A DNA stretch of 48,023 nucleotides, from the NCBI GenBank assembly GCA_964361095.1, contig CAYHZA010000005.1, forward strand, positions 19,080 to 67,102, read 5' to 3'. A model generated the notes under the pieces. It was not told the origin of the DNA. It searched no databases and saw nothing but the letters and a program-made list of their open reading frames with translations. Shown here in pieces: positions 36,410-46,025 of the stretch; positions within the stretch are counted from its first letter, which is position 1, and each line of letters opens with the position of its first letter. The translations under genes and the position numbers were made by a program. Source of the stretch: an uncultured Candidatus Saccharibacteria bacterium (GTDB lineage Bacteria; Patescibacteriota; Minisyncoccia; UBA6257; 2-01-FULL-56-20).

Positions 36410-37915
36410 ATGGAACAATTCAAGTATTCAGCGGAACAAATTCTAAACTTCATTCGCACCAAGAAGGATGCGTTTTGGAGTCGCGAACGTGAAGCACGAC
36501 CGCTTAAATTGTTTCATGAAGCCGCTCGCCGCGTGCCGGCGTATAAGGATTTTTTAAAGAAAAACAAAGTAAATCCGGCAAAGATTAAAACGTTCAAGGA
36601 TTTCCAATTCGTTCCGCCGATTAGTAAGAAAAATTATCTGCGGCAGTATCCTTTGGAAAAACTGGTATGGGACGGAACGCTCAAAAAGCCCTTGGTTTTT
36701 ACTTCTACCTCGGGCTCCACGGGTGAGCCCTTCTATTTTCCGAGAAGCGAAAAATTGGACTGGGAGTATTCTATTTTAGCGGAGCTGTTTCTGGGAAATT
36801 CTTCTCTTAAAAAAACCGGACCGACACTGGTTATCGTCGGGCTGGGAATGGGTGCGTGGATTGGAGGGCTTATTACATATAAAGCGTTTGAAATCGCAAG
36901 CGGGCGTGGAAATTTTCCGATTTCTATTATTACCCCCGGAATTAATAAAGGTGAAATATTTCATGCCTTGAGGCAGTTGTCTCCGCATTACCAGCAGACA
37001 ATTTTAATCGGGTACCCTCCGTTTATTAAAGACATTATCGATGAAGCTGTTAGCGAGGAAAAAATTAATTTAAAAAAACTGAATTTAAGGATTGTAACCG
37101 CCGCTGAAGCATTTACCGAAAAATTCCGGGATTATTTAATCAATAAGACAGGGATTAAAAGTCCGTACTTAGATACATTGAACATTTATGGCACTGCCGA
37201 TATCGGTGCAATGGCATGGGAAACACCCTCTGCCATCCTTATTCGTCGGCTTGCGCTTAAAGATCAAAAAATATTCCGCGAAATATTTTCACCCATTTCA
37301 AAAACTCCAACACTTGCTCAATACAATTCATTTTTTATCACTTTCGAGGCGCCAAATGGGGAGATTCTTCTGAGCGGCAATAACACCATTCCTTTGGTGC
37401 GCTATGCGATAGGGGATCATGGTGGAGTTTTTGATTTTGGAGACGTTATCCAGAAATTAAGCAAGCATGGAGTTGATATTAAGCAAGAAATCAAAAAAGC
37501 TGGGATTGTGCGGGGCGTATATGAATTGCCCTATGTGTATGTGTATGAGCGCGCCGATTTTTCTACCAAACTATACGGCGCGATAATCTATCCGGAGCAT
37601 ATTCGAGAAGGACTCAGTCATCCATCGATTGAAAACATGATGACTGGGAAGTTTACAATGCTTACGCAGTTCGATAAACATCACAACGAATATTTAGAGA
37701 TTCACTTTGAGCTAAGGCCGAAAAATAAGCCTTCCCATAAATTGAGCAAAATACTGGAGGACATCGTTGTCGAAAGCTTACTACAGCATAATGCCGAATA
37801 TAGGAACAACTACAGTTCTATGCCGCATCGAGTCCGCCCACGGATTATTTTGTGGAATTACGAGCATCCGCTTCATTTTAAAAAAGGTATCAAGCAAAAA
37901 TGGGTTAAAAAATAA
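36410..37915 (+). CDS. Phenylacetate-CoA ligase/CoF390 synthetase-like adenylating enzyme
   Basis: RVPAY, STSGSTGEP, GYPPF, YGTAD, PLVRYAIGD. Confidence 0.88.
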   Translation: MEQFKYSAEQILNFIRTKKDAFWSREREARPLKLFHEAARRVPAYKDFLKKNKVNPAKIKTFKDFQFVPPISKKNYLRQYPLEKLVWDGTLKKPLVFTSTSGSTGEPFYFPRSEKLDWEYSILAELFLGNSSLKKTGPTLVIVGLGMGAWIGGLITYKAFEIASGRGNFPISIITPGINKGEIFHALRQLSPHYQQTILIGYPPFIKDIIDEAVSEEKINLKKLNLRIVTAAEAFTEKFRDYLINKTGIKSPYLDTLNIYGTADIGAMAWETPSAILIRRLALKDQKIFREIFSPISKTPTLAQYNSFFITFEAPNGEILLSGNNTIPLVRYAIGDHGGVFDFGDVIQKLSKHGVDIKQEIKKAGIVRGVYELPYVYVYERADFSTKLYGAIIYPEHIREGLSHPSIENMMTGKFTMLTQFDKHHNEYLEIHFELRPKNKPSHKLSKILEDIVVESLLQHNAEYRNNYSSMPHRVRPRIILWNYEHPLHFKKGIKQKWVKK

Positions 37916-37921
37916 ACCGAT

Positions 37922-39130
37922 ATGAAAAATGCAATTGACAAAGTATTAGAAAGAATAATCGCGCAGAAATCAAAAGTTGTAGCGGAATCGAAGCCACTCA
38001 TTTTGGACTTAAGTAAAACAAAAGACAAGCATACGATATCGAAGTTATTATCTAGCAGAAAGGTTCAACAAGTTATTGATGATTATAAGGAACAGTTGCA
38101 TGAGCTTTTTGCCGTTAAAAATCCAACATTGGTTTACGCTCAAAATTTCGCCGATAAGTTTGCCGAATATTTTAGTAATTTAGAGAAGCAAAAGCCGCTG
38201 TCGGAATACGGTCGTTGGGTTTATTTCCCGTGGCTTGGCGTAGTAACTCATATTTTAGAAGATAAGGATTTCCAATTAGTGAGAACGGCCCGGAATAAAA
38301 ATCTTATTACCAAAGAAGAGCAAGAAAGGTTTTACAATGCCGTAATCGGCATAGGCGGATTAAGCGTAGGCAATAGCGTCGCAATGGCGATTGTTTTACA
38401 AGGCGGAGGAAGGCATATTCGGCTTGCGGATTTTGATCGTCTTGCGCTTTCGAATACGAATAGAGTTAATGCCGGTATCCAAAATCTGGGACTTTTGAAG
38501 GTTGAAATAACGGCACGTCAGATATACACCTTGAATCCTTATGCGAAAGTTGAACTTTTTACGGAAGGATTAACCACAAAAAACATAAGAAAATTTTTTG
38601 TCGGTCCGCCCAAGTTGGATATTGTCGTGGATGAATTGGATAATATCGCGATTAAATTTCTTATTCGAGAAGAGGCAAAGCGCCATCGTTTAGCAGTTGT
38701 TATGGCTGCTGATAATGGAGATAATGCGGTGGTCGACATTGAGAGATACGATAAAAATCCGAAGCAGAAGTTTTTTCATGGGCGGCTGGGTAATGTAAAT
38801 TATAAGGGATTAACAGGTTTAGATAAGTTTGGAATCGGAAAAACTATCACAAAACATATTGGTCCGGAGAACGTAACCGAGCGGATGAAAGAGTCGCTTT
38901 TGGAAATGGGGAAAACAATTGTTTCATGGCCGCAACTTGGGGGAGCCGCGCTACTTAATGGTTCGGCGGTTGCCTATTGCGTCCGCAAGATTCTCAATGG
39001 ACAGCAGATTGAAAGCAATCGTGCGATTATCTCTTTGGACGAGCAGTTGCTACCGACGTATCATTCGTCCATCGAAAAAAAGAAACGCCTGAAGGCGGTT
39101 AACACATTCAAGAAAGTTTTTGGGTTATAG
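37922..39130 (+). CDS. ThiF family adenylyltransferase (Rv1355c/MoeY N-terminal-like)
   Basis: RWVYFPW, RTARN, IGGLSVG, LADFDRLALSNTNR, VVDELD, SWPQLG. Confidence 0.85.
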   Translation: MKNAIDKVLERIIAQKSKVVAESKPLILDLSKTKDKHTISKLLSSRKVQQVIDDYKEQLHELFAVKNPTLVYAQNFADKFAEYFSNLEKQKPLSEYGRWVYFPWLGVVTHILEDKDFQLVRTARNKNLITKEEQERFYNAVIGIGGLSVGNSVAMAIVLQGGGRHIRLADFDRLALSNTNRVNAGIQNLGLLKVEITARQIYTLNPYAKVELFTEGLTTKNIRKFFVGPPKLDIVVDELDNIAIKFLIREEAKRHRLAVVMAADNGDNAVVDIERYDKNPKQKFFHGRLGNVNYKGLTGLDKFGIGKTITKHIGPENVTERMKESLLEMGKTIVSWPQLGGAALLNGSAVAYCVRKILNGQQIESNRAIISLDEQLLPTYHSSIEKKKRLKAVNTFKKVFGL

Positions 39131-40032: not shown

Positions 40033-41022
40033 TTATAGCGGAGGATTGGATAAAAGTTCTGCTATTGCACGGGAAATTGGCATTCCTGTTAGTTCTTCGA
40101 TCCAGCCCCACTGCCCACTGGGATTTATCTCGAGGAAGACATACTGACCTTCAGGAGTCAGAATCATGTCAATTGCCCCGAAGCTTAAGTCCCATGATTT
40201 CATCAGTTTCAAAAGAGCGTCTCGAACTTCATTTGGTAAATCGAATTGCTCGTGCCGGACGTTCCCAAAATCATATCGCCGCCAGTCGTCTTGAGTTCTT
40301 GTGCTATCCTGTGAATGTATCGCGCACGTAAAAACATTGTTGCCAACAATCGTAATACGCAGTTCAAGTTTCTTGGGGATGTATTCTTGCGCAAAGACAG
40401 GAGCGATTCGAATGCTCTCAAAATGCGTTCGTAGCTCATCCTCGGAGACTCGGTTAGTGTAGAGTGTGTAGATCTCGCCCGAGGCGGAGTCAACGAAAAG
40501 ATGTCCCTTGAGCATCTTAACCGCAATTGATCCTCCGCATGCGCGGCAAAATTCCAGAAGGTTTTTGGGGTCGTTGGTGATGATAGTTCTGGGAACAAGA
40601 AGACCATGGCGTGAGGCGCATTTCAACTGAAAAAACTTGTTATGCTCTAATAGTCGATTTGCGACGACAGGCTTATTCATCCAGAATGTCTCAAGGGTCG
40701 TATAGAGTGACCACAATGCAGCTGTGGATTCCTCTTTGACTAACTTGAAGTATCCTTCCGGAAGAACTGATAGGTTTTCGGGAGAGCGGGTTCCCCGATA
40801 CCAGCAGCTTTTTATCTCCATTAGAGAAATTATGGGGTTATCGGCAATCCTCAGCATGCCATCAAGGTTCTTGTCGCTAAGCTCTAGATTCACTTGCGAA
40901 TCGCGGGGAAACGTTTCCGTGTTGAACTTGAGATATTTTTGATCCATTTGCTCGAAGCACGCTATTACCGGGTTGACGCTAACATCGGGAGCGCTTGTTA
41001 AAATCAGAACTGCATCTTTCAC
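40033..41022 (-). CDS. ATP-grasp RiPP maturase (MvdC/MvdD graspetide synthetase-like)
   Basis: VLILT..D, FNTETFP, WMNKP, NKFFQL, VPRTIITND, QEYIPKKLELRITIVG, DWR, FGAIDMI, FLEINPSGQWGWIE; SD AAGGAGG. Confidence 0.92.
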   Translation of the reverse strand: MKDAVLILTSAPDVSVNPVIACFEQMDQKYLKFNTETFPRDSQVNLELSDKNLDGMLRIADNPIISLMEIKSCWYRGTRSPENLSVLPEGYFKLVKEESTAALWSLYTTLETFWMNKPVVANRLLEHNKFFQLKCASRHGLLVPRTIITNDPKNLLEFCRACGGSIAVKMLKGHLFVDSASGEIYTLYTNRVSEDELRTHFESIRIAPVFAQEYIPKKLELRITIVGNNVFTCAIHSQDSTRTQDDWRRYDFGNVRHEQFDLPNEVRDALLKLMKSWDLSFGAIDMILTPEGQYVFLEINPSGQWGWIEELTGMPISRAIAELLSNPPL

Positions 41023-41114
41023 CGAGGTTCCTCCTTCCGCTTAGTTGCTTATTGTGTTTTTAAGGTGCTGTGTCTAAAGTTAAGGTAAGCGCTATTCTAT
41101 ATATAAGTCAAGAT

Positions 41115-41873
41115 ATGGAGCAAAAAAAGTCCACGCAAGAAATTCCCCAAAGAACGAAGCAGCACCTCTTTAAGGTTCTTCAAGCTGCCGATGCAAAACG
41201 AAAATATCGTTGGGCAATTGATGTCTATGAGCACTATCGTAAAGTCTATTCCTTCGACGACGCGCTTGACTACAGGTTGGCGTTACTCTATGACCACTTG
41301 GTAATATTCAAAATAGAAAAACTATTAGATAAAACAAAAAAGCAGAAATTTTTAAAAAAATACCTTAAGAAAGCAGAGAACATTTATCGTGCAATAGTAA
41401 AAAGAAATCCAGATTACCACCTCGCATTCCACGGCTTGAGCCGTGTGTACCAAGCTCGCGCGCAATATCGAAAGGCAATCATGTACGCAAAAAGAGCATA
41501 TGCCCTTCTTAAAAAACTTCCAAAAAAGAGACGTGGTGTACTTGGTATAGGCAATGTGTTCTTATTGGCAGGCGACCACAAGAATGCCGAAAAATGGTTT
41601 AAAAAAGAATTGAACGATCTAGGTAAAAATCACCTGGGAGCGAATGCTAATGTAATGATGTTTTATCTTCAAACAAACAATCTTAAAAAAGGTTTGCCAT
41701 ACGCCCTCAAGACAGAAAAACTTCTTACAAGCGAACTTGCAAAGCCGATCTATCGAGGGGTCAATACAGGTTCAAGCAATAAAACGATCGGGTTGTTGAG
41801 AAAAAGGATTGATAAAATTAAGCAATTTAATTCTCACATGAAAAATAAACAGCCCACCGTTGGTGGGCTGTAG
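41115..41873 (+). CDS. TPR-repeat protein
   Basis: AENIYRAIVKRNPDYHLAFHGLSRVYQARAQYRKAIMYAKRA and IGNVFLLAGDHKNAEKWFKK TPR patterns. ATG at 41115 preferred over GTG at 41070. Confidence 0.8.
   Translation: MEQKKSTQEIPQRTKQHLFKVLQAADAKRKYRWAIDVYEHYRKVYSFDDALDYRLALLYDHLVIFKIEKLLDKTKKQKFLKKYLKKAENIYRAIVKRNPDYHLAFHGLSRVYQARAQYRKAIMYAKRAYALLKKLPKKRRGVLGIGNVFLLAGDHKNAEKWFKKELNDLGKNHLGANANVMMFYLQTNNLKKGLPYALKTEKLLTSELAKPIYRGVNTGSSNKTIGLLRKRIDKIKQFNSHMKNKQPTVGGL
41842..41871 (-). terminator. Terminator of precursor 1
   Basis: ACAGCCCACC-GTT-GGTGGGCTGT perfect stem with a T-rich tail on the minus strand, just past the precursor stop. Confidence 0.75.
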
Positions 41874-41886
41874 GAATACAGTTCCT

Positions 41887-42087
41887 TCAGTCGCTGCAGT
41901 CGTAGTCCAAGACGTCGTTGCCTCCTGTCGAGTTGATCTGGGTTGCAGTCGCCGAAGGCGATTCTTGGCCGACCCTTTGTATTCCCGGTTTTTCCAGGAA
42001 GTTTGCGATGAAGGGTTTCGGTCCGACGTGGTTGACTGAAAGCTCAATGAGAGCTTCTGGAGGAGCAGTTGTCATGGTTCGCATCAC
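41887..42087 (-). CDS. Graspetide (omega-ester peptide) precursor candidate
   Basis: SD GGAGGTG 6 nt before the GTG at 42087 (ATG follows at 42084). Leader KPFIANFLE resembles microviridin PFFARFL. Core SPSATATQINSTGGNDVLDYDCSD has Ser/Thr followed by Asp. Confidence 0.82.
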   Translation of the reverse strand: MMRTMTTAPPEALIELSVNHVGPKPFIANFLEKPGIQRVGQESPSATATQINSTGGNDVLDYDCSD

Positions 42088-42092
42088 TTTTT

Positions 42093-42166
42093 TCACCTCC
42101 TTTCTTTTGAATTTTTAAATTACTAACTAATTTCATAATGACAAGGTTTTTATGTTTTGTCAACTT
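42093..42166 (-). promoter_or_regulatory. 74-bp promoter+RBS cassette, copy 1
   Basis: TTGACA-17nt-CATTAT ... AAAGGAGGTGA; 70/74 identical to 44986-45059. Confidence 0.85.
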
Positions 42167-42606: not shown

Positions 42607-43887
42607 TTAGGTTGGCGTTTCCTCAAGAGAACCCCATTCTCCAAGATATGGACTGTAGAGGCACTCTGTGGGTTTCGCCACGAAGCTTCCCGACTTATCC
42701 ATGTTTTTTGCTTTTGGCCTGCAATCGAAGCAGGCGTATCGGTACTCGCAATCCCTGCAAATTTCGATATGGTCCTTAGAGAGTTGTCTGATTCTTTGCG
42801 CACGTCCTTTCTTAAGGATGTTTTCCAGGCTTGTTTCCAGTACGTTGCCGTAGGACATATCTCGTTCCATAATACAGGGATATACATCGCCACTCGGTCC
42901 TACGCACACCTTCTTTGAAAAACAGTTGTGTCCATAGTGCCGTTGAGTAAAAATCTCTTTCGTGCACTTTGGAAAAACTGGTCTAGTGAGATACGTGGAG
43001 GAGATTAGCTTGGTAGGTACGAGATCATTGTTGCAACCCCGGCCACTGGGTCTTACCAGATCTACCCCTACGCGTGGAATCCCCAATTCCGTGAGAAAAC
43101 ATTTCGTCTCCTCAAGGTTGTCTTGATTGTGAATCATACCAACAATTCCGGCTCGCACCTCTAGCCCAGCGGCAAGCATCCTTTTGACGTTGCTTACCGT
43201 GTGAGCGTGACTATTTTTCCCGAGGGTGATTCGTTCATGAATTGCCGGATCGTCACCGTAGAAAGAAACTGCCACGTTGACTTTGTGCTCTTTCAATGCA
43301 TCCAGCATTCTGTCGGTGAGGATAGTTGCGTTTGTAAAAACCTCTACAAACGCGAAAGATCGCTTCCTCGCATATTTGATCAATCGGATGAGATTTTCAC
43401 CCAGTATCAGTGGTTCTCCACCGATAAATTGAAGTTTTTTACACCCGAGATCGGAGACCTGATCAATGACCGAAAGCCAATCTTGGATTGACATCCGATC
43501 TTTTCCGATCAGCGAGGGATTACTTCCCGCATAGCAGTGCACACACTTCAGATTACATCCGGCGGTGAGCTCAAGCCAAATGAAGCTCAGGAGTTTCTGG
43601 TCCTTATTGATGTCGACTTTCTGGATTTTTTCTCCTGCTTCGAGATATCTCCCTAACTTGGACTCAGCCAGTTTGTTCAAATACTCAATCGACTCACCCC
43701 TGTTCAGTTCAGGGTTTTCTGTGAATATGGCCTTGGGAGACAACCCTTGTTCACAGAGTTCCAGAAGTTTTCTGGCCTCCTGATCGATGGAGTATACGTT
43801 ACCGTCCTCCAAATTATAGATCGCGGCACGTTTAGCTCCGGTAACCAAAAACACATTTTCAGCAAGTCCGAACTTTCTGCTTTCCAT
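42607..43887 (-). CDS. Radical SAM/SPASM peptide maturase with N-terminal RRE-like domain
   Basis: CNLKCVHC, IGGEPL, FTNAT; SPASM C...GDVYPC...CRDCEYRYACFDCR...C; about 90-aa PqqD-like N-terminus; SD AAGGAG. Confidence 0.92.
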   Translation of the reverse strand: MESRKFGLAENVFLVTGAKRAAIYNLEDGNVYSIDQEARKLLELCEQGLSPKAIFTENPELNRGESIEYLNKLAESKLGRYLEAGEKIQKVDINKDQKLLSFIWLELTAGCNLKCVHCYAGSNPSLIGKDRMSIQDWLSVIDQVSDLGCKKLQFIGGEPLILGENLIRLIKYARKRSFAFVEVFTNATILTDRMLDALKEHKVNVAVSFYGDDPAIHERITLGKNSHAHTVSNVKRMLAAGLEVRAGIVGMIHNQDNLEETKCFLTELGIPRVGVDLVRPSGRGCNNDLVPTKLISSTYLTRPVFPKCTKEIFTQRHYGHNCFSKKVCVGPSGDVYPCIMERDMSYGNVLETSLENILKKGRAQRIRQLSKDHIEICRDCEYRYACFDCRPKAKNMDKSGSFVAKPTECLYSPYLGEWGSLEETPT

Positions 43888-43978: not shown

Positions 43979-44788
43979 ATGATTCGTCTTTCATTTATAG
44001 TTGATAAAAGTTTTATATTGCAACACATACTGAAAAGTTTTTCGGACTGGCGTAGTGTCAAAGTTTTAAAACATAAACTCTGGAAACGAAATCAAAAACT
44101 TTACTATATCCTTGCGCAAAATATTGAACCTTTGACGTTCGCTGATAACTTTTCAGAGGAACTTAAAAGGGCCGTTAAGGATTCTCTATCTGACCTTTCT
44201 TTTATTTATAAGAACCCTTTGTTTAGAAAAATACTAAAAGAAACTGAGAAGTATAGATTATTTGTCAATGAGCAGTGGGAAAAGAATTATAATTTATCGC
44301 TGATGCATATGCGGGATATTACAAAGTTGCCGCTTGATACCGTGCAGTTAAATCTTGAGGTATATATTTCTCACCCGAAGCTATCCAGGGGCAGATCGTA
44401 TCCGGAACAGCGTGTCATCGCATGGGCTCATAGTGAGGATTGGAAGAACTATTCAACAGTATATCTTTGGCATGAAATTATGCATCACATTGCGTATAGC
44501 CGAAAAGGAAGCTCTCATCTTATGCATGCATTAATTGAATTAGCGTGCGATAACGAATTGCGGGTTAGACTTAATGGAAGAGGCGGATATTTCAGGGAGG
44601 GCGAATTCGATGTCGGTCATAACTATTTAGTGAAGTTAGAAAGAAAGATAACAGAAGAATGGAAAAAATATTTAAACGATCCCCGTACTAATGTTTATCA
44701 ATTAGAGAGAAAATTACGTTCCAAATTCTCAGAGGAGTTTTTAGTGTCGCGACAATCAGCGCTTAACGAGTGGGCTGAATGGCACTAA
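43979..44788 (+). CDS. HExxH motif protein (putative zinc metallopeptidase)
   Basis: VYLWHEIMHH with downstream HALIEL. Confidence 0.65.
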   Translation: MIRLSFIVDKSFILQHILKSFSDWRSVKVLKHKLWKRNQKLYYILAQNIEPLTFADNFSEELKRAVKDSLSDLSFIYKNPLFRKILKETEKYRLFVNEQWEKNYNLSLMHMRDITKLPLDTVQLNLEVYISHPKLSRGRSYPEQRVIAWAHSEDWKNYSTVYLWHEIMHHIAYSRKGSSHLMHALIELACDNELRVRLNGRGGYFREGEFDVGHNYLVKLERKITEEWKKYLNDPRTNVYQLERKLRSKFSEEFLVSRQSALNEWAEWH

Positions 44789-44836: not shown

Positions 44837-44980
44837 CTATGACGGCATGCACGCCGGTTGGCAGTCGGGTCCGCACTGAGGAATGCATTCCGTGCTTTCG
44901 GGCGCAACTTGTTCTCCGTCTGGAGCGTTGTCACTCGACTGAAGTTTCTGGTTTCCCTGAGTGACCTTTGTAAGTTCCAA
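44837..44980 (-). CDS. Cys-rich RiPP precursor candidate, 47 aa (not in ORF track)
   Basis: SD GGAGGTG 6 nt before TTG. MELTKVTQGNQKLQSSDNAPDGEQVAPESTECIPQCGPDCQPACMPS. Own promoter and terminator. Confidence 0.82.
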   Translation of the reverse strand: MELTKVTQGNQKLQSSDNAPDGEQVAPESTECIPQCGPDCQPACMPS

Positions 44981-44985
44981 GTTTC

Positions 44986-45059
44986 TCACCTCCTTTCTTT
45001 TGAATTTGTAAATTACTAACTAGTTCCATAATGGCAAGGTTTTTATGTTTTGTCAACTT
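44986..45059 (-). promoter_or_regulatory. 74-bp promoter+RBS cassette, copy 2
   Basis: 70/74 identical to 42093-42166; TTGACA-17-CATTAT; AAAGGAGGTGA. Confidence 0.85.
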
Positions 45060-45102: not shown

Positions 45103-45165
45103 GCCGTCGGGGAGTAACTCACAGCCGTGGAAATCCTCCTTAATTTCTGGTATAATGTAAGTACC

Positions 45166-45405
45166 ATGGCAATTGATCAAAGGTTAAAGAAATACTTTTG
45201 GGATACGGATTTCAATGCCCTAGACAGAAAGAAGCACAAGCGTTATATCATTGAGCGTATTTTAGAGATGGGGGATGAGCCGGCGGCGGCGTGGATGAGG
45301 CAAACATTTTCCAAGGACGACATTATAAAGGTGCTCAATGCAACGAGAAATATATCGAAGCGGAGCATGCATTTTTGGCATCTCGTTCTCGACCGTTCTG
45401 TATGA
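45166..45405 (+). CDS. DUF6922-like putative antitoxin
   Basis: YFWDTD..LD..KH..YIIERILEMGD...FW; TGGTATAAT upstream. Confidence 0.8.
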   Translation: MAIDQRLKKYFWDTDFNALDRKKHKRYIIERILEMGDEPAAAWMRQTFSKDDIIKVLNATRNISKRSMHFWHLVLDRSV

Positions 45406-46025
45406 AAATACACGCTGAAGCGCTTCCAAAAGATACAGAGCGTCTTCTGCCTTCGCTTGCAGAGATGCCCTCTGTCAAAAACTTTTATCTTGCGGGTGGC
45501 ACCGCGCTCGCTTTGCAGATCGGGCATAGAATATCCGGCGATTTGGATTTCTTTTCGGAAGAAGCTTTTGACGAATCCTTGTTGATTCAAAAACTGTCTG
45601 GGTCCTATGAATTTCAGATAGAGAAGAAGTCAGAACAAACCGTACTTAGTATAATTAGCGGCGTCAAAGTATCTTTCCTCGGGTATCCCTATCCGCTCTT
45701 GGTTCCCGCTAATGAGGCACTCGGTGTACGCGTTGCGGATATTCGCGATATCGCCTGTATGAAAATTGACGCGGCGTCAAACCGCGGCACCAAGCGCGAT
45801 TTTATTGATCTGTACTGTATTATCCGCGCCGCGTTTTCCCTTTCGGACATCCTGCAGTTTTTTGAAAAGAAATATTCTATACTGCACTACAACATGATGC
45901 ACATCAAAAAGAGTTTGGTTTATTTTGAAGACGCCGAAGGCGACCCCATGCCGCAGATGCTTCAGCCGGTTTCATGGGAGGAGGTAAAATCATTCCTGGA
46001 ACGCGAGGCGTTGCGTCTTTCATAG
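45402..46025 (+). CDS. AbiEii/AbiGii family nucleotidyltransferase toxin
   Basis: FYLAGGTALALQIGHRISGDLDFF, MKIDA..RGTKRDFIDLY, SLVYFEDAE; ATGA coupling. Confidence 0.9.
   Translation: MKIHAEALPKDTERLLPSLAEMPSVKNFYLAGGTALALQIGHRISGDLDFFSEEAFDESLLIQKLSGSYEFQIEKKSEQTVLSIISGVKVSFLGYPYPLLVPANEALGVRVADIRDIACMKIDAASNRGTKRDFIDLYCIIRAAFSLSDILQFFEKKYSILHYNMMHIKKSLVYFEDAEGDPMPQMLQPVSWEEVKSFLEREALRLS

Follow-up and report, generated by a model that had tools for sequence, protein, structure and literature searches.

An unannotated open reading frame (ORF) of 47 codons, here named pepA (44980..44837, minus strand), was examined in a 48,023-nucleotide stretch of DNA from an uncultured Candidatus Saccharibacteria bacterium, the whole of which is referred to below as the window. 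With a probability a little below 0.8, pepA can be read as coding for the precursor of a peptide made by ribosomes and modified after translation (RiPP), the leader of which would dock on the RiPP recognition element (RRE) of a neighbouring radical S-adenosylmethionine (rSAM)/SPASM enzyme, and the cysteines of which would be modified by that enzyme, most likely to thioethers. An earlier note made from the letters of this DNA had already proposed pepA as the substrate of that enzyme, a proposal now supported by locus counts, by the RRE, rSAM and SPASM build of the enzyme, by a model of the leader on the RRE, and by the occurrence of enzyme-core fusions. Judged by sequence comparison, pepA is also a member of a large uncatalogued family of peptides with Cys-x-Pro (C-x-P) repeats, distributed over Patescibacteria, Negativicutes, Clostridia, other bacterial phyla and some archaea.

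The pepA gene and its repeat motif

Translation of pepA from its TTG start through 47 codons to a TAG stop yields (M/L)ELTKVTQGNQKLQSSDNAPDGEQVAPESTE followed by CIPQ-CGPD-CQPA-CMPS, a layout that comprises a MELTKVT leader, a variable linker and the core CIPQCGPDCQPACMPS, in which all four cysteines (4/4) stand four residues apart, each with Pro at position +2. The earlier note had read exactly this core from the DNA, and the expression signals that it had named were all located, on the minus strand, which it had left unspecified. The Shine-Dalgarno sequence AAAGGAGGTG occupies 44996-44987, with GGAGG (44993-44989) 8 nt 5' of the TTG, and a promoter-like site (TTGACA-17-CATTAT, with TG ahead of the -10 hexamer and 10/12 matches) lies at 45056-45028(-). 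Beyond the 3' end of the gene, an intrinsic-terminator-like hairpin (44817-44793, minus strand; 11 pairs plus a T-run) has a folding energy of -19.8 kcal/mol (z -4.9) that 0/200 shuffles equalled, and sits just past the convergent gene for a 269-aa protein as well. When all six frames of the window are read, a single run of at least three C.P. units is found; none of 200 shuffles gave one. The nearest gene on the same strand is, as had been claimed, that of the rSAM/SPASM enzyme (43887..42607(-)), which is 950 nt from pepA with one gene in between.

A six-frame search of 60 relatives returned pepA homologues at E<=1e-4 in 2 of 36 genomes of the same family, G011 (2e-5) and G021 (9e-5), but in 0/24 genomes from the remaining families of the order that were searched. 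MELTKVT and C[I]PQCGPDCxPACxP are preserved in G011 and G021 alike, and each copy adjoins a homologue of the 269-aa protein. A further match in genome G020 (E 0.15) fell in a high-GC pilin-like region and was taken as chance. Leader and core together were also recovered in metagenome proteins, and the DNA of the locus is present in groundwater metagenome runs. Large protein collections gave 2 matches with the single pepA sequence and 9 with the peptide alignment, and 1.84 billion representative proteins yielded 17 matches at E<=0.001, so that precursors of this sort are evidently seldom picked up by gene callers.

When 22 codons of the leader and core of pepA were compared with those of four relatives, there were 14 synonymous and 3 non-synonymous differences for L020, and 8/3, 10/3 and 10/3 for the others, one of the three non-synonymous differences being that between a TTG and an ATG start. 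A Shine-Dalgarno sequence stands directly ahead of the MEL start in L026, L037, L039, L066, L047 and L060. Conservation and the pattern of synonymous and non-synonymous change rule out a chance ORF, and on this comparative evidence pepA is a genuine gene under purifying selection.

The motif itself was characterised from 17 stand-alone peptides and 4 C-x-P tails fused to enzymes (21 sequences). Pro occupied position +2 of 99 of the 105 cysteines, and position +1 was free. Of 97 units, 27 had Asp at position +3, 15 had Ala and 10 had Gln. Successive units were spaced by 3-9 residues, four being the commonest value, with three exceptions (11, 16 and 21). Since the spacing varies, the unit is C-x-P and not a fixed period of four, and the earlier remark that the regular Pro distinguishes the peptide from the CX3D pattern proved to hold family-wide.

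The C-x-P peptides and the radical SAM/SPASM enzyme

The genomic company kept by C-x-P frames was established from two sets of 80 loci, one anchored on the 269-aa family (alignment A1) and the other on the rSAM enzyme (alignment A4, a closer rSAM alignment chosen since alignment A3 was too diverse for a locus search). The rSAM set consisted of 80 loci kept from 200 tblastn-confirmed stretches, with the rSAM clade represented in 80/80; all frames were scanned, and a frame was scored when it held at least three C.P in 30 aa. The pattern search near rSAM homologues that the earlier note had recommended as a check thereby disclosed a C-x-P-rich frame within 3 kb in 66 of the 80 rSAM-anchored loci, placed directly downstream of the enzyme gene in 47 cases, upstream on the same strand in 17, and elsewhere in 2.

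The 269-aa-anchored loci gave a C-x-P frame in 22 of 31 with an rSAM gene, as against 3 of 49 without one; of those three, one is flanked by insertion sequences (IS), one retains no more than a remnant of the rSAM, and one is a contig end. The corresponding Fisher p of 1e-9 overstates the association, because related genomes are not independent. Within the same loci, 25 C-x-P frames lay no more than 1.5 kb from 269-aa or rSAM genes (302,760 bp) and 3 lay elsewhere (417,480 bp). A homologue of the 269-aa protein was present in only 14 of the 80 rSAM-anchored loci. It is apparent from these locus counts that the C-x-P peptides follow the rSAM enzyme and that the 269-aa protein is an accessory found mainly in Patescibacteria records, so that the latter is ruled out as the primary partner of pepA.

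By record title, the rSAM-anchored set takes in the cultured Negativicutes Pelosinus, Sporomusa, Anaerospora, Lucifera, Propionispora and Dendrosporobacter, and also Clostridia, Latescibacterota, Krumholzibacteriota, Bacteroidetes and some archaea. Many of its C-x-P frames are long repeats, built for example from CWPRQQ or CPPSQCRP units, and those of Negativicutes (Pelosinus, Sporomusa, Dendrosporobacter) have an acidic N-terminal part followed by many C-x-P repeats; the Negativicutes frames matched 0 NCBIfam families. These Negativicutes frames are 100-200 aa long and lie just downstream of the rSAM match in L117, L119, L125, L126, L130, L131, L148, L153 and other loci. Two further kinds of small frame were encountered: a different upstream peptide ending in CQCCKPGPCSPK[LQ], beside a distant rSAM subclade of 28-31% identity (L027:8019-8204(-), L029:3876-4037(-)), and other small Cys-rich frames that start MK(I/S)..PKKFSW and end in CSxGxCSGKC-like repeats (L021:2411-2560(+), L028:7004-7219(+)). 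One frame of the CSxGxCSGKC type belongs to G021, where the pepA homologue is ~4 kb away.

The enzyme of the window (426 aa; 42607..43887, minus strand) has an N-terminal RRE-like domain (residues ~1-85), its own promoter-like site (43950-43922) and a terminator-like site (42588-42555). Its radical-SAM domain (PF04055, E 1.5e-22) contains the CX3CX2C cluster motif as CNLKCVHC, C115 and C118 being invariant among 23 sequences and C111 conserved in at least 90% of them. The SPASM domain (PF13186, E 4.7e-11) contributes eight cysteines (C322, C328, C338, C377, C380, C386, C389 and C409), five of which are invariant in those 23 sequences and one, C409, conserved in at least 90%. C328 is replaced by A, T, V or Y in the wider clade, many members of which would as a result have an open cluster site. 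No NCBIfam model reached its cut-off for this enzyme or for eight relatives, those of Pelosinus and Sporomusa included; the best row, TIGR04193 (110.3 bits against a cut-off of 175, E 1.3e-31), covered only enzyme residues 312-419, equivalent to profile positions 232-333 of 342.

In the AlphaFold model of the enzyme (pLDDT 91.2), three strands (12-16, 21-25 and 30-34) and then three helices (36-46, 51-57 and 63-75) precede the barrel. Foldseek placed CteB first (5why_B, E 1.7e-17, 432 columns) with SuiB, SkfB and TigE next, the alignments to CteB and SuiB being full-length, and ranked the anaerobic sulfatase-maturating enzyme (anSME) lower (4k39_A, E 2.6e-12; 4k37_A, 1.6e-17 in the profile search). 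As modelled, the enzyme has the RRE, rSAM and SPASM build of CteB and SuiB.

Prediction of the leader together with the RRE, which had likewise been suggested beforehand, placed MELTKVT on the RRE-like domain. Three runs of the pepA-rSAM complex model (alignments A3 and A2) scored 0.80, 0.78 and 0.81, the best of three controls scoring 0.17; the score mark applied is reached by 58/80 solved complexes and by 2/110 mismatched pairs. At least 42% of contacts were common to the runs and the partner pLDDT was at least 39. Peptide residues 1-9, the only part confidently placed, are predicted to face enzyme residues 22-23, 29-35, 37-38, 41, 65-76 and 303-308, and the involvement of the RRE-like strand 29-35 and helix 65-76 corresponds to the usual leader-on-RRE arrangement. 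Because peptide complexes of CteB and SuiB have already been solved, the high score may reflect likeness to them.

Four full-length rSAM enzymes carry a C-x-P tail at their own C-terminus (L018:2560-3528(-), L033:3916-4896(-), L043:4635-5615(+) and L095:6564-7550(+)). They are 322-328 aa in length and are without the first ~100 residues, and the same tails recur on truncated frames in L065 and L071. The L018 tail consists of two tandem CVPQCGPDC[VT]PACIPS cores, nearly that of pepA, and peptide P0101 has the same core in stand-alone form. None of the four full-length fusions has the RRE-like domain; every enzyme of alignment A3 with a separate or undetected peptide has it (19/19). Viewed through their sequences, the fused forms would be either enzyme-substrate fusions or enzymes whose tails have been recruited as cluster ligands.

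Several observations weigh against taking pepA as a substrate crosslinked by the enzyme. No C-x-P-rich frame was found within 3 kb in 14 of the 80 rSAM-anchored loci. Genome G021, which is 96% complete, has pepA and the 269-aa gene, its rSAM gene not being found with the query used, and the pair in question (contig C1; L012 5464-8653) lies between two transposase-like ORFs of IS type; in G011 the rSAM gene (contig C23; L011 54-1369) is split over two overlapping frames by a frameshift or an assembly error. These two genomes suggest that pepA can persist without an intact rSAM. In the fused enzymes the tail stands in for the CX2CX5CX2C half of SPASM and could there be a cluster ligand, not a substrate; the eight SPASM cysteines of the window's enzyme resemble the fully ligated clusters of anSME, unlike the open site of CteB, as both are described in parts of PMC7771511; and pepA itself has Q or D at +3 in only 2/4 units.

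The position of the fused tail, in place of the second SPASM cysteine motif, and the persistence of pepA in G021 without a detectable rSAM would both fit a peptide that is no substrate at all. It would instead bind metal or an iron-sulfur cluster and cooperate with the enzyme, whether as mini-metallothionein, as donor of a cluster or as auxiliary ligand, and some lineages would have joined the two by fusion; with its four thiols at regular intervals it could presumably hold metal. Such a role is nevertheless very improbable, since the length of the core, the number of cysteines (3 to >10) and their spacing (3-9) vary more widely than is typical of a cofactor site, the stand-alone peptides keep a leader that models onto the RRE, and nothing is missing from the SPASM domain of the enzymes that go with stand-alone peptides. 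The loss of the RRE-like domain from the full-length fusions, set against its retention in all the others, points the same way.

Oxidation of the cysteines is a live rival, because Pro at +2 recalls the anSME site and the enzyme has eight SPASM cysteines. The rSAM would then abstract a C-beta hydrogen from the Cys of each C-x-P and oxidise the residue to a thioaldehyde, formylglycine or another product other than a crosslink, the outcome being a peptide with several aldehydes. The anSME target is given as (C/S)X(P/A)XR in the relevant passages of PMC7771511, which also assign to anSME fully ligated auxiliary clusters such as eight SPASM cysteines would allow; the Pro at +2 of the present family is near-invariant, and the anSME structures are clear matches to the enzyme model. 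However, each of the four pepA units has the C-x-P (4/4) and none has the Arg at +4 (0/4), the 25 best NCBIfam rows of the enzyme do not include TIGR03942, the best structural matches were the RRE-bearing crosslinkers CteB, SuiB and SkfB, and the lack of conservation of C328 in the wider clade would leave many members with an open cluster site. On balance, anSME-like oxidation is considered improbable, if less so than a purely metal-binding role.

Thioether formation is favoured in view of the crosslinking activity of the structural relatives, the frequency of Q or D at +3, and the linking of C-X-X-Q/D by the enzyme CrpC. On this favoured reading, the MELTKVT leader would first dock in beta-strand form on the N-terminal RRE-like domain, as the complex model predicts. 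The enzyme would then modify all four core cysteines, one in each C-x-P-x unit, the likeliest product being one ranthionine-type thioether per Cys, with either the +3 residue (Q, D, A or S) or the Pro itself as acceptor. Removal of the leader would most likely fall to the 269-aa zincin-fold protein. From its signals pepA would be an independently transcribed gene, and a second small gene behind the same promoter module, pepB, would probably supply an ATP-grasp ligase.

A more specific extension of the thioether reading, which is doubtful but less so than anSME-like oxidation, is that C-x-P is a self-contained three-residue unit in each of which the rSAM closes a thia-ring from the Cys sulfur to Pro or to the +3 residue. 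If that were true, the products would be strings of 3 to >10 micro-rings and would constitute a new RiPP class spanning ultra-small Patescibacteria, cultured Negativicutes and some archaea, and the fused forms would be self-modifying rSAMs that dispense with the RRE.

Neighbouring genes and the second small ORF

The genome comprises 822,488 bases in 16 contigs and is 98.7% complete, and the source names of homologous proteins put the organism's relatives in Patescibacteria/Parcubacteria. From pepA downward the order is the 269-aa ORF(+), the rSAM/SPASM gene(-), pepB(-), a gene for a TPR-repeat protein(+) and one for an MvdD-like ATP-grasp enzyme(-).

The 269-aa HExxH protein (43979-44788, plus strand) has a predicted zincin (gluzincin-like) fold and is a candidate leader peptidase. 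H165, E166, H169, H183, D191, E193, R195 and H214 are invariant in the 34 sequences of A1, and E187, 18 residues past the motif, is conserved in at least 90% of them; gluzincins characteristically follow a ligand-spacing rule that combines HExxH with a downstream Glu. No Pfam family and 0 NCBIfam families at E<=0.01 matched the protein. Its model (pLDDT 93.5) returned nothing at E<=0.001 with Foldseek, and the top matches with VIA-align were M1 aminopeptidases and thermolysin at Z 9.1 to 6.9 (1z1w_A, Z 9.1, rmsd 4.0, 167 aligned; thermolysin 4m65_A, Z 7.2), values that a widely shared arrangement can also give. With zincins listed throughout and an HExxH motif in the sequence, a metallopeptidase is the likeliest assignment, and the modelled protein is probably the pepA leader peptidase.

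A weaker alternative is an alpha-ketoglutarate-dependent HEXXH oxygenase (IPR026337), a type of enzyme that acts in RiPP pathways according to passages of PMC12636437, and with which the invariant R195, H183 and H214 are compatible; the comparison with ChlB-HExxH (8s5f_A; Z 5.3, rmsd 4.5, 144 aligned) ranked below the peptidases. By record title the 269-aa family is widespread in Patescibacteria and also occurs in DPANN-type archaea and Bdellovibrionota. It probably serves other peptide systems too, since 49 of its 80 loci have no rSAM nearby; in L046 the homologue is paired with an ATP-grasp gene.

A 78-nt module of promoter, 5' untranslated region and Shine-Dalgarno sequence (promoter-like hexamers, GGAGG) precedes pepA (44982..45059, minus strand), and a second copy, 94% identical, precedes pepB (42089..42166, minus strand). 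These were the only two copies in the assembly. Contigs C1 and C2 gave further weak matches, and one in contig C11 was dismissed because only a Shine-Dalgarno-like sequence is present there, ahead of a 72-aa ORF that is unrelated. Extra contigs in runs X1 and X4 carry the module (window 44975-45059) with different flanks and at similar depth (49 vs 42 for record 2 of X1; 7.7 vs 8.3 for record 9 of X4), and the samples thus contain at least one more copy which is absent from the assembly, perhaps with a third small gene behind it.

The pepB ORF (66 aa; 41887..42087, minus strand) lies behind the second module and has a GTG start. Its leader contains PFIANFL. Thr/Ser and Asp abound in its C-terminus, which ends in TATQINSTGGNDVLDYDCSD and has one Cys; the core counts 4 Thr/Ser and 4 Asp. 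PFIANF conforms to the Phhx(1,2)h graspetide leader signature set out in parts of PMC8939145. No pepB homologues were found in the 60 relatives, where matches at E 0.002 and E 0.17 both fell inside long frames. The leader motif, the Thr/Ser and Asp core and the presence of an MvdD-type ATP-grasp gene alongside are those of a graspetide precursor, and on these sequence features pepB is probably a candidate precursor of that kind and the substrate of the ATP-grasp ligase at 40033-41022.

That ligase, an MvdD/MvdC-like peptide ligase (40033..41022, minus strand; PF21068, PF08443), scored 233.9 bits with TIGR04184 (E 2.4e-69), under the cut-off of 475, and probably partners pepB rather than pepA. 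The TPR-repeat protein (41070..41873, plus strand), the gene for which lies between pepB and the ATP-grasp gene, has a homologue adjoining the 269-aa gene in L019. At 36410-37915(+) of the window there is a PaaK/F390-synthetase-like adenylating enzyme, named by eye, and behind it, at 37922-39130(+), a ThiF/E1-like protein, which aligns with the Rv1355c family model over the model's N-terminal half. Homologues of the ThiF-like protein were seen near rSAM or 269-aa genes in 3/80 loci (L022, L043 and L044), with a nitroreductase-like ORF alongside in L043 and in L008/L022, and the PaaK-like and ThiF-like pair may form a further peptide-modifying module.

Since pepA and pepB have one promoter module in common and ThiF-like homologues do occur in those three loci, it might be supposed that pepA is modified mainly by the ATP-grasp ligase, or by the PaaK-like ligase together with the ThiF/E1-like protein (36410-39130). 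That is scarcely credible. With no Thr, one C-terminal Ser and one Asp, the pepA core has hardly a residue on which an ester or amide crosslink could be made, ATP-grasp homologues are confined to 2/80 and 3/80 loci of the two sets, and the C-x-P frames track the rSAM enzyme. Taken together, an 822-kb, 98.7%-complete genome spends two promoters and ~5 kb on predicted modified peptides.

Directly upstream of the pepA promoter, at 45291-46025(+), lies a gene with an AbiEii-type nucleotidyltransferase toxin domain (PF08843, E 4e-16); a 92-aa ORF (45127-45405) that overlaps its start could be a candidate antitoxin.

Relation to known systems

Precursors of the SCIFF and freyrasin types have Cys-rich patterns in which Cys recurs at every fourth residue. 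As with CteA/CteB (SCIFF) and the ranthipeptides, pepA is a short precursor with a Cys-rich C-terminal core, placed beside an RRE, rSAM and SPASM enzyme, and a gene for a leader and Cys-rich core adjacent to the enzyme is what is expected of the RRE-dependent rSAM/SPASM maturases. It differs from the ranthipeptides in that its unit is C-x-P and not CX3D, that the leader has ~7 conserved residues, and that some relatives are enzyme-core fusions. The enzyme scored 64.4 bits with the PapB/freyrasin model NF047865 (cut-off 340), and Asp stands at +4 in 0/4 pepA units. The SCIFF maturase model was not among the 25 best of 81 NCBIfam rows (weakest E 1.6e-15), the comparison having been made under what we take to be the names of the SCIFF models. 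The 'CXXX repeat peptide' system that Haft and Basu are said to have described in 2011 would be set apart solely because its maturase model is absent from the 25 best NCBIfam rows. The pepA peptide itself matched 0 NCBIfam families at E<=0.01 and no Pfam family.

To our knowledge anSME has no RRE. It also differs from the present system in that its target is a single site of a folded sulfatase and has Arg at +4, and in being a weaker match to the enzyme than CteB or SuiB; in common are an rSAM/SPASM enzyme acting on a Cys with Pro at +2 and, from passages of PMC7771511, fully Cys-ligated auxiliary clusters. A closer precedent for the favoured chemistry is CrpC of Methanococcus voltae, likewise an RRE-rSAM-SPASM enzyme, which on mass-spectrometric evidence puts ranthionine crosslinks on the C-X-X-Q/D repeats of CrpA (parts of PMC13692751). 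Repeated Cys motifs are common to both systems, with Q or D at +3 in 2/4 pepA units and in 37/97 units family-wide. CrpA is, however, a large protein whose repeats are 17 residues long, its hallmarks as presented in those parts do not include Pro at +2, and TIGR04463, to which they assign CrpC, was not among the 25 best rows for the enzyme of the window.

Makarova et al. (2022) describe, in passages of PMC8939145, loci of the candidate phyla radiation (CPR) that contain MvdD-like ATP-grasp enzymes, TPR proteins and zincin peptidases, often with a SPASM rSAM, together with precursors that have Phhx(1,2)h leaders and may be missed small ORFs. Both pepB (PFIANFL) and the ATP-grasp ligase fit that description. 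The difference is that the SPASM enzyme is there regarded as an extra graspetide modifier, and that the main-text passages concerned mention no separate C-x-P family. The grasp-with-spasm system (TIGR04192/TIGR04193) likewise has something in common with the locus, in that TIGR04193 was the best row for the SPASM half of the enzyme and an ATP-grasp gene is present; it differs in that TIGR04193 remained below its cut-off and the ATP-grasp protein scores higher with the MvdD and MvdC models. No paper dealing with the C-x-P motif, or with carriers such as Pelosinus, in connection with radical SAM was found in the openly licensed PMC and bioRxiv literature, and of the papers listed there on ranthipeptides and radical SAM in Patescibacteria none treats this system.

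In relation to these systems, pepA gives a concrete candidate substrate to an rSAM/SPASM clade without a curated family model, a clade that includes cultivable strains of Pelosinus, Sporomusa, Anaerospora and Lucifera. Neither the almost invariable Pro at +2 nor the enzyme-core fusions figure in the sactipeptide, ranthipeptide and SCIFF descriptions with which they were compared. The pepA system would belong to the known rSAM/SPASM kind of Cys-rich RiPP, as a variant of its own whose C-x-P family is so far uncatalogued and has no curated model.

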